A DNA stretch of 6,491 nucleotides, taken from the IMG/VR virus record IMGVR_UViG_2671180884_000025; one strand, written 5' to 3'. The notes beneath the pieces are model-generated. The model saw only the letters and a program-made list of their open reading frames with translations. It made no database searches and was not told the DNA's origin. This document shows positions 1-5,947 of this stretch, piece by piece. The position numbers and the translations under genes were made by a program. Within the stretch, counting starts at the first letter, position 1; every line of letters starts with the position of its first letter. The DNA is from a virus (taxonomy: Duplodnaviria > Heunggongvirae > Uroviricota > Caudoviricetes).

Positions 1-57
1 GAGGTGGATCCGTTTGCGGCGCTGGAAGACGCGCTGAGCTTTGCAGCACAGTCATGA
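1..57 (+). CDS. 3' end of an upstream ORF (frame 1, translates ...EVDPFAALEDALSFAAQS*). By position it may be the C-terminus of a gpT-like tail assembly chaperone; truncated at the window start.
   Basis: Open frame from base 1 to TGA at 55-57, directly upstream of the tape measure gene as in lambda G/T-H order. Too short to recognise by sequence. Confidence 0.35.
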   Translation, partial: EVDPFAALEDALSFAAQS

Positions 58-65
58 ATGATGAG

Positions 66-86
66 AACCGCTGAGGCGGTTTTTTT
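66..86 (+). terminator. Weak intrinsic-terminator-like hairpin between the upstream ORF and the tape measure gene
   Basis: Stem AACCGC (66-71), loop TGAG, stem GCGGTT (76-81), running into a run of 7 T (80-86). Short stem, so at most a weak terminator or attenuator. Confidence 0.3.
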
Positions 87-104: not shown

Positions 105-3100
105 ATGGCGACGTTACGTGAACTGATTATCAAAATTTCGGCAAATTCGCAGTCATTCCAGTCGGAGATCCAGCGGGCTTCCCGCATGGGCAGTGAATAT
201 TACCGGACCCTGCAGAATGGCGGGCGTCAGGCTGCCGCAGTCGCCCGGGAGCAGCGACGCGCCCTGGCTGAGCTGAACAGCCAGTTGACGGAAATCCGCG
301 CTTCAGCTGCCGGAACGGCGGGGGCATTTGCAGGTGCCTTTGCCACCGGACACCTGATTTCTCTGGCCGATGAATGGAGTTCCGTGAATGCCCGACTGAA
401 ACAGGCGTCGCAGTCATCCGATGAATTTTCGTCATCACAGAAAGTGCTGATGGATATCAGCCAGCGGACGGGCACGGCATTTTCAGATAATGCGGCCCTG
501 TTTGCCCGCTCGGCAGCCTCAATGCGTGAATATGGCTACAGTGCTGATGATGTGCTGAAGGTGACGGAGGCCATTTCCACGGGGCTGAAAATCTCCGGTG
601 CCAGTACGGCAGAGGCGGGCTCGGTGATCACCCAGTTCAGCCAGGCGCTGGCACAGGGTGTGTTACGCGGTGAGGAATTTAATTCGGTCAATGAAAGCGG
701 AGACCGGATCGTACGTGCACTGGCTGCGGGTATGGGCGTGGCCCGTAAAGACCTTAAGGCGATGGCGGACGACGGCAAACTGACGGCGGATAAAGTCGTT
801 CCTGCGTTAATCAGCCAGCTGGGGGTATTGCGTGATGAATATGCCGCCATGCCGGAAACGGTCTCTGACGGGATCACAAAGGTGGAAAACGCCTTTATGG
901 CCTGGGTGGGTGGCGCGAATGAGGCCAGTGGGGTGACAAAAACGCTCTCCGGCGTGCTGAACGGTGTTGCCGGTAATATTGATAATGTGGCAACAGCAGC
1001 GGGGGCGCTGGTTGCCGTCGGGGTTGCCCGGTACTTTGGCAATATGGCCTCCGGAGCGGTGTCTGCCACGGCAGGACTTGTGACGGCAGCACGTAATGAA
1101 GTGGCACTGGCGGAAGCACAGCTCAGGGGGACGCAGATTGCCACGGCGCGGGCAAGGGCAGCCGTGTACCGTGCACAGCAGGCTGTGGCGGCAGCCCGCG
1201 GGACGGAGATGCAGATTGCTGCAGAAGCCCGTCTGGCGGCCACACAGGAACGCCTGAACAGAAATATTGCTGCCAGAACCGCAGCCCAGAATGCGCTGAA
1301 CAGTACAACGGCGGTGGGCTCACGTCTGATGACTGGTGCGTTGGGACTGGTTGGTGGCGTACCCGGACTGGTGATGCTGGGGGCAGCAGCATGGTATACG
1401 CTGTACCAGAATCAGGAGCAGGCCAGGGAGTCAGCGCGCCAGTATGCACTGACGATAGATGAAATCGCGCATAAAACGCCGTCAATGTCTTTGCCTGAAG
1501 CCTCAGATAATGAAGGACGAACACGGGCGGCGCTGGCAGAGCAGAACCGGCTGATTGATGAACAGGCCAGCCGGGTGAAATCCCTGCAGGAAAAAATCGC
1601 TGGATATCAGTATGTTCTGGCTAACCCTGGCTGGACAACCGGTGACGGATTCATGATAAACCATCTGACATCGGTGAAGACCGTAACGGAAGGGCTTTCT
1701 CAGGCAACAGAGCAGCTTGCCGTTGAGCAGTCCCGTCTGGCACAGATGCAGGAAAAAGCGCAGTCCATTCAGGATGTGCTTGCCGGGCTGGAAGACCGTC
1801 GTGTGGCGTTAATTCGTCAGCAGGCGGCAGAGCAGAATAAGGTGTACCAGTCCATGCTGGTTATGAACGGTCAGCATACGGAATTCAACCGTCTGCTGGG
1901 GCTGGGGAATGAACTGCTTCAGCAGCGGCAGGGACTGGTGAATGTACCGTTACGGCTGCCGCAGGCCACCCTGGATGATAAACAGCAGAGCGCCCTGACA
2001 AAAACAGAACGTGAGCTGGCCCTGTCCCGACTGAAGGGGGAGGAAAAAGAGCGTGCCCGGCTGGGGTATGCGGCGGATGACCTCGGTTTTGTGGGGGATT
2101 CGTATCAGGAGGCGAGACAGCGTTATATCAGTAATGCTCTGGAAGCCTGGCGTAATAACGAGGCGAACAAACCTAAATCCCGGGGTGGAAAATCAGAGAC
2201 GGAAAAAGCGGAAGACAGTTTTTCCCGGCTACTGAAGCAGCAGAAAGAGCAACTGGCACTGGCGGGTAAGAATACAGAGCTGGCGAAGCTGAAGTACCAG
2301 ACTGCGCAGGGCGAACTGAAAACCCTGACGGAGATGCAGAAGCAGGAACTGCTGCGTAACGCGGCCCTGATTGACCAGCAAAAAATCCGGGAACAGTTGC
2401 GATCCCGGGAAGAGACCCTGAAGAATGATAATGTGGCTGCGCGTGCATCAAATGAAGCCGAACTGCTGGGATACGGGCAGGGAGAACGAGCCAGGGAACG
2501 CATGCGGGAGTTGCAGCAGATCCGCGACAGCTTCCGCCAGAAGGATGCGGACCTTCAGTCTCAGTATCAGACCGGGGATATCAGTGAGGATTTTTACAGA
2601 CAGGCACGGGCACAGAACGCGCAGTATCTGAGCGAACGCCTTAAGGACCAGGCAGCCTTTTATGCCGAATCGGATGCGCAGCGTGCGGACTGGCAGAAAG
2701 GCTTGCAGGAGGGGCTCAGTAACTGGGTGGATAATGCGTCCGATTACGCCTCACAGGCAGCACAGCTTGCGACGGAGGGTATCTCAGGGATGGTGAATAA
2801 CATCACGGAGATGCTGAACGGGAATAAAGTGGAATGGCGCAACTGGGCCTCATCAGTGCTGCAGGAAATATCAAAAGTTCTTATGAATGCCGCGATTGTC
2901 AACGGGATCAAGACGGCGGCAAACAGTATGTCCGGTGCAGGAGGATTTATTGGCAGTATTGGTGACTGGCTGGGCGGTGCGGTGGCCAATGCAAAAGGCG
3001 GCGTGTATACCTCGGCAAACCTGAGTGCGTACAGCAACAGCATTGTGGATACGCCCACGTACTTTGCCTTTGCAAAAGGGGCCGGGCTGATGGGGGAAGC

Positions 3101-3347
3101 CGGACCTGAAGCCATAATGCCCCTGACCCGGGCGGCGGATGGCTCGCTGGGCGTACGTGCCGTGGGCAGGATGAACGGGAGTGCGGGTCTGGTGTATTCC
3201 CCGGTCTACCACATCGCCATTCAGAATGACGGGGCCAACGGTCAGATAGGGCCGGAGGCGGCAGGCAGCCTTGTTCAGTTGATTGACCAGCGGGTGCAGG
3301 CGGTGATGCTGTCCATGCGACGAGACGGAGGAATGCTGAGTGGCTGA
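105..3347 (+). CDS. H: Phage tail tape measure protein (lambda gpH-like C-terminal region), 1080 aa
   Basis: Long ORF with an AAGGTG Shine-Dalgarno 5-6 nt before ATG 105. Gly/Ala-rich hydrophobic segments (e.g. GALVAVGVARYFGNMASGAVSATAGLV, LMTGALGLVGGVPGLVMLGAAAWYTLY), a long Q/E/R/K-rich coiled-coil-like middle, and a C-terminus (…IQNDGANGQIGPEAAG…MRRDGGMLSG) resembling the lambda gpH C-terminus as recalled. Sits immediately upstream of M/L/K. Confidence 0.92.
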   Translation: MATLRELIIKISANSQSFQSEIQRASRMGSEYYRTLQNGGRQAAAVAREQRRALAELNSQLTEIRASAAGTAGAFAGAFATGHLISLADEWSSVNARLKQASQSSDEFSSSQKVLMDISQRTGTAFSDNAALFARSAASMREYGYSADDVLKVTEAISTGLKISGASTAEAGSVITQFSQALAQGVLRGEEFNSVNESGDRIVRALAAGMGVARKDLKAMADDGKLTADKVVPALISQLGVLRDEYAAMPETVSDGITKVENAFMAWVGGANEASGVTKTLSGVLNGVAGNIDNVATAAGALVAVGVARYFGNMASGAVSATAGLVTAARNEVALAEAQLRGTQIATARARAAVYRAQQAVAAARGTEMQIAAEARLAATQERLNRNIAARTAAQNALNSTTAVGSRLMTGALGLVGGVPGLVMLGAAAWYTLYQNQEQARESARQYALTIDEIAHKTPSMSLPEASDNEGRTRAALAEQNRLIDEQASRVKSLQEKIAGYQYVLANPGWTTGDGFMINHLTSVKTVTEGLSQATEQLAVEQSRLAQMQEKAQSIQDVLAGLEDRRVALIRQQAAEQNKVYQSMLVMNGQHTEFNRLLGLGNELLQQRQGLVNVPLRLPQATLDDKQQSALTKTERELALSRLKGEEKERARLGYAADDLGFVGDSYQEARQRYISNALEAWRNNEANKPKSRGGKSETEKAEDSFSRLLKQQKEQLALAGKNTELAKLKYQTAQGELKTLTEMQKQELLRNAALIDQQKIREQLRSREETLKNDNVAARASNEAELLGYGQGERARERMRELQQIRDSFRQKDADLQSQYQTGDISEDFYRQARAQNAQYLSERLKDQAAFYAESDAQRADWQKGLQEGLSNWVDNASDYASQAAQLATEGISGMVNNITEMLNGNKVEWRNWASSVLQEISKVLMNAAIVNGIKTAANSMSGAGGFIGSIGDWLGGAVANAKGGVYTSANLSAYSNSIVDTPTYFAFAKGAGLMGEAGPEAIMPLTRAADGSLGVRAVGRMNGSAGLVYSPVYHIAIQNDGANGQIGPEAAGSLVQLIDQRVQAVMLSMRRDGGMLSG

Positions 3348-3681
3348 GATAAAAACGCTGCATCTGGTCCCGCGTGAAGGGATGCAGGTGAGTGAGAAAC
3401 CGTCGGTGGTGAGGGTCCGGTTTGGTGACGGTTATGAACAGCGCCGACCGACGGGACTGAATGCCCGACTGAAGACATTTCAGGCAGTGTTCCGGGTGAC
3501 GGATGAGGCGACCCGGCGCTGGCTGGATGAATTTTTATCGTGGCATGGTGGTTACCGTGCCTTTTTGTGGCGACCGCCGAAACATAACCGGACGGTCAGG
3601 GTGGTGTGCCGGGAGTGGAGTATTACGGATAACGCCAGGTACAGCGATTTCAGTTGTATGATGGAACAGGTAATAAGATAA
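3340..3681 (+). CDS. M: Minor tail protein M (lambda gpM homolog), 113 aa, GTG start overlapping the end of H
   Basis: Translation MAEIKTLHLVPREGMQVSEKPSVVRVRFGDGYEQRRPTGLNARLKT… aligns by eye with lambda gpM (…SVPSVRKVRFGDGYSQRAPAGLNANLKT…). GGAGG at 3326-3330 precedes the GTG at 3340; the start overlaps the H stop (3345-3347) by 8 nt, suggesting translational coupling. Confidence 0.9.
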   Translation: MAEIKTLHLVPREGMQVSEKPSVVRVRFGDGYEQRRPTGLNARLKTFQAVFRVTDEATRRWLDEFLSWHGGYRAFLWRPPKHNRTVRVVCREWSITDNARYSDFSCMMEQVIR

Positions 3682-3774
3682 GTTTTTGAGAAAAAAACCT
3701 AAAAGCATCGTTTATTAATTTGCTTGCTTGTTATTTTTGTTTTGTCTTGACATAAAGTGCTATCAAAGTTGTTT

Positions 3775-3830
3775 TTTTACATTTTGAAACAAAATAAAAA
3801 TTGAACCCGTAATTTAATTTACAATATTTT
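3775..3830 (+). promoter_or_regulatory. Putative porin promoter region: OmpR-box-like motif TTTACAATTTTGAAACA (3775-3791), candidate -35 TTGAAC (3801-3806), candidate -10 TACAAT (3820-3825)
   Basis: The motif resembles the OmpR-binding C1 site of ompC as recalled from memory (TTTACATTTTGAAACATCTA), with one extra A. TACAAT is a near-consensus -10, but the spacer to TTGAAC is only 13 nt, so the promoter may be activator-dependent with a poor -35. The whole 207-bp M-porin spacer is AT-rich. Confidence 0.4.
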
Positions 3831-3888
3831 GAGTTTTGTTCATGACATCTCTATGCATGAATAGTTCAGTTTAAATAAGGATTAAATC

Positions 3889-3957
3889 ATGAAAAAAATG
3901 ACAGTGGCACTTTCAGCTGTGGCAGCAGCTGTAATTTTTGCAGCGGGGGCGCAGGCT
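3889..3957 (+). other. Sec signal peptide of the porin (23 aa, [23 protein letters not shown], predicted cleavage before AEVY)
   Basis: Positively charged N-terminus (KK), hydrophobic core, A-x-A site immediately before the conserved mature porin N-terminus. Confidence 0.8.
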
Positions 3958-5052
3958 GCAGAAGTATACAATAAAGATGGCAATAAACTTGATGTGTATG
4001 GGCGTGCAACTGCACTCCATTATTTCTCCAGTGATAAGGGGGATGATGGAGATAAGACATACGCACGTCTGGGCTTTAAAGGTGAAACTCAGATTAATGA
4101 CCAGTTGACTGGTTTTGGTCAGTGGGAATATCAGTTCTCTGGTAATAAAGCTGAATCAGAGGGTGCTGCGGGTAATAAAACCCGTCTTGCATTTGCAGGT
4201 CTGAAGTTTGGTGAGTTTGGCACCATTGATTATGGTCGTAACTATGGTATTGCGTACGATGTTGGTTCTTATACTGACGTATTACCAGAGTTTGGCGGTG
4301 ATGGCTGGACCCAGACCGATAACTTCATGACAGCCCGTACTTCCGGGGTATTAACCTATCGTAATACAGATTTCTTTGGGCTTGTCGATGGCCTGAATTT
4401 TGCGGCACAGTACCAGGGTAAAAATGATCGGGGTGATCTCCGGAAAGCTAATGGTGATGGTCACGGTTTCTCAGCCAGTTATGAATATGAAGGTTTTGGT
4501 ATCGTTGCCGCATATATTAATGCGGACCGAACCAATAATCAGGAAAAAGGTCTGAATGGTACTCTGACGATTGAACAAACTGATCCTTTAACCGGTAAAG
4601 TGACTGAAAAGCAGATCGTTGTTGATTCCGGTAGTGTTGCAAAAGGTAAACACGCTGAGATGTGGGGAGTCGGACTAAAATACGATGCTGACAACCTTTA
4701 CCTGGCTACAACATATTCCGAAACTCAGAATCTGACGACCTTTGGTGATAAAGGAGTTGCAGATAAAGCGCAAAACTTTGAAGCGGTACTGCAGTATCAG
4801 TTTGATTTCGGTCTGCGTCCATCTCTGGCATTCCTGCAGTCTCGTGCTCAGGATGTCATTGTAGGTGGTAAAAACTATGGTGACCAGGATTTGGTTAAGT
4901 ATGTTGACGTAGGTGCGAAATATTACTTCAATAAAAATATGTCCACCTATGTTGATTATAAAATCAATCTGGTTGATGAGAATAAGTTTACCAGGGATGC
5001 GGGCATTGCAACGGATGATATCGTTGCTGTTGGTATGACTTATCAGTTCTGA
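3889..5052 (+). CDS. General diffusion porin, OmpC/OmpF/PhoE/NmpC/Lc family (16-strand beta-barrel trimeric porin), 387-aa precursor
   Basis: AAGGA Shine-Dalgarno 7 nt before the ATG. N-terminal signal peptide with AQA cleavage motif, then mature N-terminus [15 protein letters not shown] as in enterobacterial porins. Conserved blocks [24 protein letters not shown], loop-3 [78 protein letters not shown]-terminal …VGMTYQF with terminal Phe, the outer-membrane beta-barrel signature. Confidence 0.95.
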
Positions 5053-5072
5053 TGATTACTGGTAAATAAATA

Positions 5073-5126
5073 CAGGCCATCTGCCCTCACAGATGGCCTG
5101 TATCAGTGGAAGTTATATTTCCACTG
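5073..5126 (+). other. Two tandem stem-loops in the porin 3' UTR, neither followed by a T-tract
   Basis: First: CAGGCCATCTG (5073-5083), loop CCCTCA, CAGATGGCCTG (5090-5100). Second: CAGTGGAA (5104-5111), loop GTTATAT, TTCCACTG (5119-5126). A further palindrome ATCAGCTA-T-TAGCTGAT lies at 5137-5153. Confidence 0.5.
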
Positions 5127-5210
5127 GTCACTGCGATCAGCTATTAGCTGATTTAATTTTCATTTTATTACCTTCATCGTTTTTGATTTTTTAATTGAAC
5201 TATTTTATCA

Positions 5211-5234
5211 GGGGCGCATTGCGCCCCTTTTTTT
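5211..5234 (+). terminator. Rho-independent terminator ending the porin transcription unit
   Basis: Perfect GC-rich stem GGGGCGC (5211-5217), loop ATT, GCGCCCC (5221-5227), followed by 7 T (5228-5234). Ends 14 nt before the L start codon. Confidence 0.85.
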
Positions 5235-5248
5235 ATGGGTGGATGTTT

Positions 5249-5947
5249 ATGCAGGAGATCAACGAAGAAAGCCTGAATGAGTCGGTTAAATCAGAGCAGT
5301 CACCGCGGGTGGTACTCTGGGAAATTGACCTGACGGTGCAGGGTGGTGAGCGGTATTTTTTCTGTAATGAGCTGAATGAAAAAGGGGAGCCGGTCACCTG
5401 GCAGGGGCGGAAGTACCAGGCATACCCGATTGACGGCAGCGGCTTTGAGATGAACGGGAAAGGGAGCAGTGCCCGCCCGTCACTGACGGTGTCGAATCTG
5501 TTCGGGCTGGTTACCGGGATGGCGGAGGATTTGCAGAGCCTGGTGGGGGCCACGGTGGTTCGTCGCCGGGTGTATGCGCGTTTTCTGGATGCGGTGAATT
5601 TTGTGGCAGGCAATCCTGAGGCCGACCCGGAGCAGGAGCTGACGGACCGGTGGGTGGTGGAGCAGATGTCATCGCTGACGGCCATGACGGCCTCGTTTGT
5701 GCTGGCGACACCGACGGAGACGGACGGGGCGCTGTTTCCCGGTCGCATCATGCTGGCGAACACCTGTATGTGGGATTACCGGGGCGATGAATGCGGGTAT
5801 AACGGTCCGGCAGTGGCGGATGAGTTCGACAACCCCACCACGGATATCCGGAAGGACAGATGCAGCAAGTGCATGCGCGGGTGTGAACTGCGCAGGAATG
5901 TCGGCAATTTTGGCGGTTTCCTTTCCATCAATAAACTTTCGCAGTAA
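5249..5947 (+). CDS. L: Minor tail protein L (lambda gpL homolog), 232 aa
   Basis: From ATG 5249 the translation MQEINEESLNESVKSEQSPRVVLWEIDLTVQGGERYFFCNELNEKGEPVTWQGRKYQAYPI…GNFGGFLSINKLSQ closely matches lambda gpL as recalled, including its 232-aa length. The track ORF starts at 5195, but that extension spans the terminator hairpin and has no lambda counterpart, so 5249 is preferred. Confidence 0.93.
   Translation: MQEINEESLNESVKSEQSPRVVLWEIDLTVQGGERYFFCNELNEKGEPVTWQGRKYQAYPIDGSGFEMNGKGSSARPSLTVSNLFGLVTGMAEDLQSLVGATVVRRRVYARFLDAVNFVAGNPEADPEQELTDRWVVEQMSSLTAMTASFVLATPTETDGALFPGRIMLANTCMWDYRGDECGYNGPAVADEFDNPTTDIRKDRCSKCMRGCELRRNVGNFGGFLSINKLSQ

Follow-up and report, generated by a model that had tools for sequence, protein, structure and literature searches.

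We analysed a 6,491-nt stretch of caudoviricete DNA (IMG/VR record IMGVR_UViG_2671180884_000025; hereafter the window), part of the late operon of a lambdoid Escherichia coli prophage with an HK97-type tape measure, and found a foreign cassette inserted between the minor tail protein gene M and tail gene L that carries a complete outer-membrane porin gene and a conserved structured RNA in its 3' untranslated region (UTR). With moderate confidence, we read this cassette as a porin-replacement module: a lysogen would make a phage porin with a novel surface, and the 3' end of the porin mRNA would lower synthesis of the host porin OmpF. Phage-borne porins and IpeX, the element encoded after the phage porin genes lc and nmpC, are already known, and the kind of system is hence a known one. 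What appears to be undescribed in the searchable literature, and absent from GenBank phage records, is a separate porin lineage with a fixed place at the M/L junction, the presence of that lineage in about 2% of complete E. coli genomes, the hypervariable loop L5 of this porin, and a diverged IpeX-like UTR whose seed is MicF-like in the sequence class of the window. Our literature search found no paper describing a porin at exactly the M/L position.

A porin cassette inserted between tail genes M and L

The window runs from the end of gene T through H, M, the insert and L to the start of K. The features that define the insertion are as follows.

3674–5248, plus strand: the whole inserted cassette (a moron), 1,575 bp, 40.2% GC, from alignment of filled and empty sites
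3340–3681, plus strand: tail gene M (minor tail protein), Pfam Phage_min_tail, 98 bits
5249–5947, plus strand: tail gene L, ATG at 5249, Pfam Phage_tail_L, 311 bits, and RefSeq annotation
5237–5243, plus strand: Shine-Dalgarno sequence of L, GGGTGGA, inside the right edge of the insert
105–3347: tape measure gene H

The insert edges (about 3674–5248) were obtained by alignment with the empty site ON470597, in which the stop codon of M and the start codon of L overlap as TGATG, the arrangement of phage vB_EcoS-569R3. The alignment parts after CAGGT at about 3673, and the final three codons of M come from the insert. Translation of L is coupled to that of M when the site is empty; when it is filled, the insert provides the Shine-Dalgarno sequence of L. 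A first-pass annotation, made from the sequence alone, had put the insert at 3682–5248, within 8 nt of these edges. Its description of the insert as AT-rich foreign DNA also holds, as both GC content and GC at third codon positions (GC3) fall sharply across it (40% against 55–58%, and 36% against 59–62%, relative to the flanking H, M and L). By part, GC is 24.6% in the upstream region, 43.6% in the porin gene (GC3 35.8%) and 37.1% in the 3' UTR.

A search of GenBank phage records with positions 3300–5400 returned 154 records that match the flanks only, with M and L adjacent, which bears out the claim that the cassette is an insertion and not a core part of the tail module. None of the GenBank phage records encodes a porin more than 69% identical to the one in the cassette. 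The moron concept is reportedly due to Hendrix and colleagues, and the classical lambdoid late-operon examples are lom and bor of lambda and the tail-region morons of HK97-like phages. The present cassette resembles them in being polymorphic for presence at a gene boundary, in its distinct base composition and in having a clear terminator of its own; a promoter of its own is likely, judging by homology to the ompC and lc regulatory regions. It differs in that the classical morons carry a single gene, whereas the cargo here has two parts, a protein and a putative regulatory RNA.

The filled site is present in 92 of 5,426 complete E. coli genomes (about 2%), Shiga-toxin-producing isolates among them, and falls into three sequence classes (at least 99%, about 86% and about 81% identity). 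The 3' UTR occurs in 107 of the same genomes and is never annotated; RefSeq names the cassette gene only 'porin OmpC'. All 30 IMG/VR loci with an 80–100% identical porin have M directly upstream, and L lies downstream wherever the contig extends far enough; about 50 loci of the NmpC/Lc type (68%) were inspected and none is flanked by M or L. One junction is common to the three classes and to all tail-embedded alleles examined. More distant alleles likewise lie between Phage_min_tail and Phage_tail_L genes; one of them bears the label Citrobacter, and another belongs to a lambda-type tail module whose tape measure is different. Among species-representative genomes there is no relative of the porin above 68%. 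An 81%-identical allele, P0016, lies outside a tail module in two loci. In L175 (3001–4320) an IS66-family element cuts its 3' UTR just before the terminator, and in L176 (3001–4340) the cassette is intact within a degraded remnant and followed by a stub of L, with genes for phosphotransferase system, Rop and type VI secretion lipase proteins nearby. The 3' UTR stays with the porin even in cassettes outside tail modules. Multiple copies were also seen: the 3' UTR occurs at two places in strain 2012EL-2448 (NZ_CP027586.1, the genome of locus L001), and three viral contigs of IMG genome 643348545 (L011, L015 and L016) each carry an identical porin.

A general porin with an enlarged, hypervariable loop L5

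3889–5052, plus strand: porin gene, 387 aa (open reading frame; Pfam PF00267, Porin_1)
3889–3957, plus strand: signal peptide, 23 aa (translation and alignment)
4528–4650, plus strand: hypervariable extracellular loop L5, residues about 214–254 (allele alignment and structural model)

The gene is a full-length porin, as had been proposed: the product aligns with the whole of the Porin_1 profile (positions 1–337 of 337; 465.3 bits, with the cut-off at 23.7), and has a signal peptide, the mature N-terminus AEVYNK, the motif PEFGGD of the constriction loop L3 and a C-terminal YQF. Its best relatives of solved structure are OmpC and OmpK36 (E about 1e-128 to 1e-122). The AlphaFold model has 16 strands and an L3 with helices, at a moderate predicted local distance difference test score (pLDDT) of 67.6 overall and below 50 in L3. 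The protein is 68% identical to Lc/NmpC and 57% to K-12 OmpC, its nearest named relatives are porins of the Lc/NmpC/OmpD type (64–69%), and the alleles of the M/L type form a group of their own at 79–100% identity.

L5 is far longer here than the corresponding segment of OmpC or OmpF. Variation among the M/L-type alleles is concentrated after DRTNNQ, where some alleles have no insertion and others up to about 25 additional residues; two more sites show smaller indels. The model sets the variable segment between strands 9 and 10, which corresponds to L5, with pLDDT moderate to low in this part. Down to about 80% identity, every class keeps an intact reading frame, and substitutions and indels fall mostly in surface loops. 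Judged from the allele alignment, this pattern would fit selection acting on the parts of the protein exposed at the cell surface.

The 3' UTR is a conserved structured RNA

5053–5234, plus strand: structured 3' UTR (IpeX-like element), about 184 nt (folding, covariation and covariance model)
5070–5103, plus strand: hairpin 1, 14-bp stem; 99% of cells paired, 4 pairs changed on both sides
5104–5126, plus strand: hairpin 2, 10-bp stem; 96% of cells paired, 5 pairs changed on both sides
5135–5153, plus strand: hairpin 3, 7–8-bp stem; 98% of cells paired, 1 pair changed on both sides
5154–5209, plus strand: single-stranded AU-rich region, 56 nt, putative seed
5210–5234, plus strand: rho-independent terminator, GC-rich stem 5210–5228 followed by U7; 7 of 7 stem pairs invariant in 14 variants

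Of these elements, the first-pass annotation had noted the strong terminator, which is confirmed 14 nt before the ATG of L; it left two of the three hairpins undescribed and the third uninterpreted. The UTR of the window has a minimum free energy (MFE) of −68.1 kcal/mol (z = −8.6 against shuffles). Covariation was assessed over 14 distinct UTRs and 38 pairs, extending an earlier version with 9 sequences. Standard pairs occupy 98.3% of cells, compared with 36–47% when the partners are slid by 1–3 columns, and changes on both sides affect 10 pairs and 32 cells (0–6 pairs and 0–13 cells in the slid controls). None of 500 shuffles matches the observed pairing and compensatory values. The 3' UTR is a conserved structured RNA. 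The loop of hairpin 3 is larger in the 81% class. In the MFE fold, the seed motif UUACC pairs with GGUAA just after the stop codon, and this pairing is absent as a conserved feature in the 81% class.

The unpaired core is predicted to pair with host porin mRNAs

While the stems vary, UUAUUACCUU (5165–5174), within the unpaired core (5157–5185), is invariant in 13 of the 14 variants. The 37-nt core (5154–5190) was tested by duplex prediction against 113 translation-initiation regions of K-12 and the carrier prophage, each covering −50 to +30. Of the 113, ompF is the best predicted target of the window core: the duplex has an energy of −24.0 kcal/mol, against a background of −12.2 ± 3.9, and spans −24 to +9, and 0 of 500 and 1 of 1000 shuffles are equally good. 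The ompC start region ranks sixth (−19.7 kcal/mol), and the porin's own start region is at background (−9.7 kcal/mol, z = +0.5 against shuffles). As a positive control, MicF also ranks ompF first, at −27.4 kcal/mol. The target segment of ompF is at least 95% identical in 5,416 of the 5,426 genomes.

The preferred target differs between alleles. In the 86% class ompF again ranks first (−23.5 kcal/mol) and ompC third, and in the 81% class ompC ranks first (−27.6 and −28.5 kcal/mol), with no shuffle equally good. The unpaired region of IpeX likewise ranks ompC first (−26.1 kcal/mol), and its seed CUUCUGUUAUAUAUUACCCUUUAUU is similar to that of the 81% class, CUUUCUGUUAUUACCUUUAUU.

Relation to IpeX, MicF and other known systems

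IpeX, which is encoded after lc/nmpC, is reported to repress OmpC and OmpF. The lc gene of phage PA-2 is said, in work by Castillo-Keller and colleagues of 2006 and in earlier work, to carry the IpeX element, and the receptor of PA-2 is reportedly OmpC. The first-pass annotation had drawn a link to Lc and NmpC; the link is real but not close, at 68% protein identity and a different location. Like lc–ipeX of PA-2 and nmpC–ipeX of the cryptic prophage DLP12, the cassette joins a lambdoid-prophage porin gene to a UTR set between the stop codon and a rho-independent terminator, with a common UTR layout of about 170–190 nt, three hairpins, a single-stranded stretch containing UAUUACC, and the terminator. 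The upstream regions of lc/nmpC also hold diverged versions of the same landmarks, namely an OmpR-like box, GTGACATC and AATAGTTCA. On the other hand, the UTRs are barely alignable except at the seed and terminator, and L5 of the cassette porin is much longer. Furthermore, the DLP12 cassette, on the opposite strand, has Q and the lysis genes as its neighbours, whereas the present one lies between M and L on the late-operon strand, and the IpeX region is predicted to favour ompC where the seed variant of the window favours ompF.

A covariance model (CM) built only from M/L-type UTRs found the lc/nmpC UTRs over their full length, from stop codon to terminator, at 43–46 bits, with an E-value of about 1e-7 on a rough calibration; chromosomal porin loci of the ompC type scored 14 bits or less. 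Rfam holds no IpeX family, and the missing Rfam match is therefore uninformative on homology. On our preferred reading the whole cassette (promoter, porin and UTR) is a diverged paralogue of lc/nmpC–ipeX that was relocated into the tail operon, and strict homology of its UTR RNA to IpeX is probable.

The likeness to MicF concerns the target site. The predicted duplex of the window core with ompF (−24 to +9) and that of MicF (−17 to +10) both run from the Shine-Dalgarno sequence to the first codons, with similar predicted energies. MicF, however, the chromosomal antisense RNA of ompF, is a separate gene divergent from ompC, whereas the present element lies in the 3' UTR downstream of a porin gene, and a target in common may have made the two alike by convergence. 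Two other systems deserve mention. The small RNA svsR, encoded by prophage NC-SV, lowers the outer-membrane phage receptor LamB and reduces adsorption (PMC12803456); it has no porin partner, and target complementarity is not reported in that paper (PMC12803456). We considered svsR as a prior description of the present element and rejected it, as svsR is located at the 3' end of cI and is unrelated to the cassette RNA (PMC12803456). The NmpC-type porin of prophage Perceval in strain LF82 is expressed 10-fold above background (PMC9928086), and belongs to a different cassette.

The upstream region resembles the ompC promoter

3776–3791, plus strand: OmpR C1-box homologue TTTACATTTTGAAACA, 16/16 identical to the chromosomal ompC C1 site
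3739–3767, plus strand: block homologous to the far-upstream ompC–micF intergenic region, 25/29 (86%) identical to K-12
3838–3881, plus strand: core promoter and short 5' leader, blocks GTTCATGACA and CATGAATAGTTCA, conserved in the three classes and partly in lc/nmpC
3857–3862, plus strand: possible −10 element ATGAAT, inferred
3877–3881, plus strand: Shine-Dalgarno sequence of the porin gene, AAGGA

The region upstream of the porin had been called promoter-like, and this view stands to the extent that the region is homologous to the EnvZ/OmpR-activated ompC promoter through the C1 box (ompC C1 oligonucleotide sequence from PMC2586830) and the 29-nt block. The box sequence TTTACATTTTG is invariant across the three main classes. 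Two alleles sampled later deviate from it (L172 TTTACCATTTG and L179 TTTACATTTGT), and lc/nmpC carry CTTACATCTTGAAATA at this position. In the alignment, the porin leader is about 60 nt shorter than the ompC 5' UTR, so the cassette would lack any host-RNA binding sites that the missing part of the ompC leader contains. From these features we infer an activator-dependent promoter with a short leader.

The K-12 counterpart of the block at 3739–3767 lies just upstream of micF, and when the minus strand ahead of the porin gene was searched for remains of micF, only the promoter-proximal block was present and there was no micF-like RNA match. This suggests that the ancestor of the cassette was cut from an ompC–micF-type locus just short of micF.

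Proposed mechanism and alternative explanations

In the porin-replacement module as we picture it, a host-factor-dependent promoter with the ompC-type C1 box would drive a short-leader transcript in the lysogen; the box is observed, and its regulatory role is putative. The transcript would encode a general porin of the OmpC/OmpD/NmpC group, with a greatly enlarged L5 that is hypervariable between alleles, and would end in the 3' UTR of about 184 nt, the structure of which is taken from covariation. The unpaired RNA that separates hairpin 3 from the terminator is predicted to pair with the Shine-Dalgarno/AUG region of ompF in the manner of MicF; pairing with ompC is predicted to be weaker, and none is predicted with the start region of the cassette itself. 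Such pairing would lower host porin synthesis and let the phage porin take over, and sister alleles would use seed variants favouring ompC, as IpeX does. During lytic growth, Q-antiterminated transcription would presumably read through the terminator of the cassette, which has the same orientation as the late operon, and genes from L onward would be expressed together with the porin and the RNA. The likely benefit is an altered receptor and antigen landscape that could exclude porin-dependent phages and colicins and reduce the loss of progeny on lysogens. The first-pass annotation had mentioned changes in host porin levels in connection with Lc, and an IpeX-like RNA with a MicF-like anti-ompF seed, as predicted here, would give that remark a concrete mechanism.

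Several observations weigh against this reading. A consensus scan of 3682–3888 found no sigma-70-type promoter, and only one of the three OmpR sites of ompC is clearly kept, C2 and C3 not being clearly conserved. The duplex energies come from a simple hybridisation model that leaves out accessibility, set against a background of only 113 start regions, and AU-rich anti-Shine-Dalgarno sequences pair widely, with phi_4381 and napF reaching −21 to −22 kcal/mol. In the divergent allele L179, ompC ranks only fifth and ompF eighth, with weaker pairing. The Rfam MicF model (RF00033) matches 5146–5236 only weakly, over its full length and ending on the terminator, at 28.3 bits against a cut-off of 79. 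With sequence-only profiles the nhmmer link between the UTR and IpeX is marginal (E = 0.006, terminator end only), and the reverse search is not significant. The reverse strand of the window also reaches 29 bits with the CM, and generic hairpins therefore make up part of the CM score. Finally, the carrier prophage adjoining btsS has a frameshifted portal gene, and another has a tape measure with an internal stop; some host prophages thus look defective, and the cassette may now be maintained by the host and not by the phage.

Part of this evidence would equally suit a plain porin moron, a possible alternative to which we give limited credence. The extra porin would serve permeability, adaptation to bile or antibiotics, or antigenic variation, the UTR would only stabilise and terminate the transcript, and the complementarity to ompF would arise because porin start regions and AU-rich UTRs all look alike. 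The porin identity and the hypervariable L5 are as expected on this account, a stabiliser would likewise look like tandem hairpins followed by a terminator, several unrelated start regions lie within 2–3 kcal/mol of ompF, and the reverse-strand CM match shows that generic hairpins contribute. It leaves unexplained, however, why the unpaired core is invariant in nearly all variants while the stems vary with compensation, why this core pairs with ompF or ompC far above shuffles and not with its own start region, and why experiments have described the corresponding region of lc/nmpC as a porin repressor.

A cis-regulatory role of the 3' UTR, in which it controls its own cassette or L through late-operon insulation, tuning of read-through or sequestration of its own ribosome-binding site, appears improbable. 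The closeness of the terminator to the ATG of L, the provision of L's Shine-Dalgarno sequence by the insert, and the pairing of UUACC with GGUAA in the MFE fold are compatible with such a role; but the seed pairs with its own start region no better than background, the 81% class does not conserve the GGUAA/UUACC pairing, and L176 keeps an intact UTR beside an L reduced to a stub. That the cassette is decaying cargo, a chromosomal ompC-like locus captured once and now drifting without function, is hardly credible despite the frameshifted or interrupted structural genes of some carrier prophages and the allele truncated by IS66, as the reading frame is intact to about 80% identity with changes concentrated in surface loops, the UTR stems evolve with compensatory change, no species-representative genome holds a relative closer than 68%, and the element is found in 107 complete genomes. 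Taken together, the conserved unpaired core, the compensatory stems, the lack of self-pairing and the IpeX precedent argue against these alternatives, and a porin-replacement module is the reading that we prefer.

Implications

Many phages, colicins and antibiotics enter the cell through porins, which are also major surface antigens. A substitute porin combined with silencing of the resident one would shift phage susceptibility, drug permeability and antigenicity in one step. The interest of the cassette lies mainly in a testable idea, namely that seeds and surface loops are retuned between alleles. We tentatively suggest, as a bolder and rather doubtful extension of the porin-replacement module, that the M/L cassettes form a 'programmable' family in which a variable L5 is paired with a seed retuned to a particular host porin. 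If this were true, ompF would be silenced in the window class and ompC in the 81% class and by IpeX, and a prophage would choose both the receptor that is removed and its replacement, which would amount to evolvable, RNA-guided superinfection exclusion or receptor remodelling within a tail operon.

IpeX is the single known porin-gene 3' UTR that acts on host porins, and the cassette would add a second, diverged lineage with different seeds; these differing seeds provide a natural series for testing how 3'-UTR RNAs are retargeted. In addition, prophage porin genes of this kind could be mistaken for chromosomal ompC in typing or resistance surveys.

Other features of the carrier prophages and the window

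The three carrier prophages whose J proteins we compared with all phage records differ from one another in the C-terminal 299 aa of J, and these C-termini match J proteins of PhiR12 or of long-tailed Shiga toxin phages. Our literature search found no receptor assignment for the matched J proteins and nothing relevant on the PhiR phages. An outer-membrane protein gene of the Ail/Lom family follows J in prophages of the 81% and 86% classes (L170:20644–21267 and L171:19835–20434). Together with the porin, these prophages would add at least two outer-membrane proteins to the host. In the carrier prophage of L001, a DNA methyltransferase gene (L001:3449–4384) lies between the lysozyme gene and the downstream lysis protein genes, and a protein with a YadA C-terminal domain is encoded after the side tail fibre genes; both are likely further morons.

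Two minor features were seen elsewhere in the window. A terminator-like hairpin with an 8-bp stem (5 GC pairs), followed by TTTTTGTGG, lies within the coding sequence of M (3542–3561, plus strand). Positions 19–86 (plus strand), in the gap from gene T to the tape measure gene, give a weak match to the Rfam family isrK (27.1 bits, where the cut-off is 50; E = 0.008 for the whole window and 0.0002 locally). This stretch forms hairpins that end in a terminator-like AACCGC-UGAG-GCGGUUUUUUU, and it could represent an intrinsic terminator or else a small RNA encoded within the tail operon.

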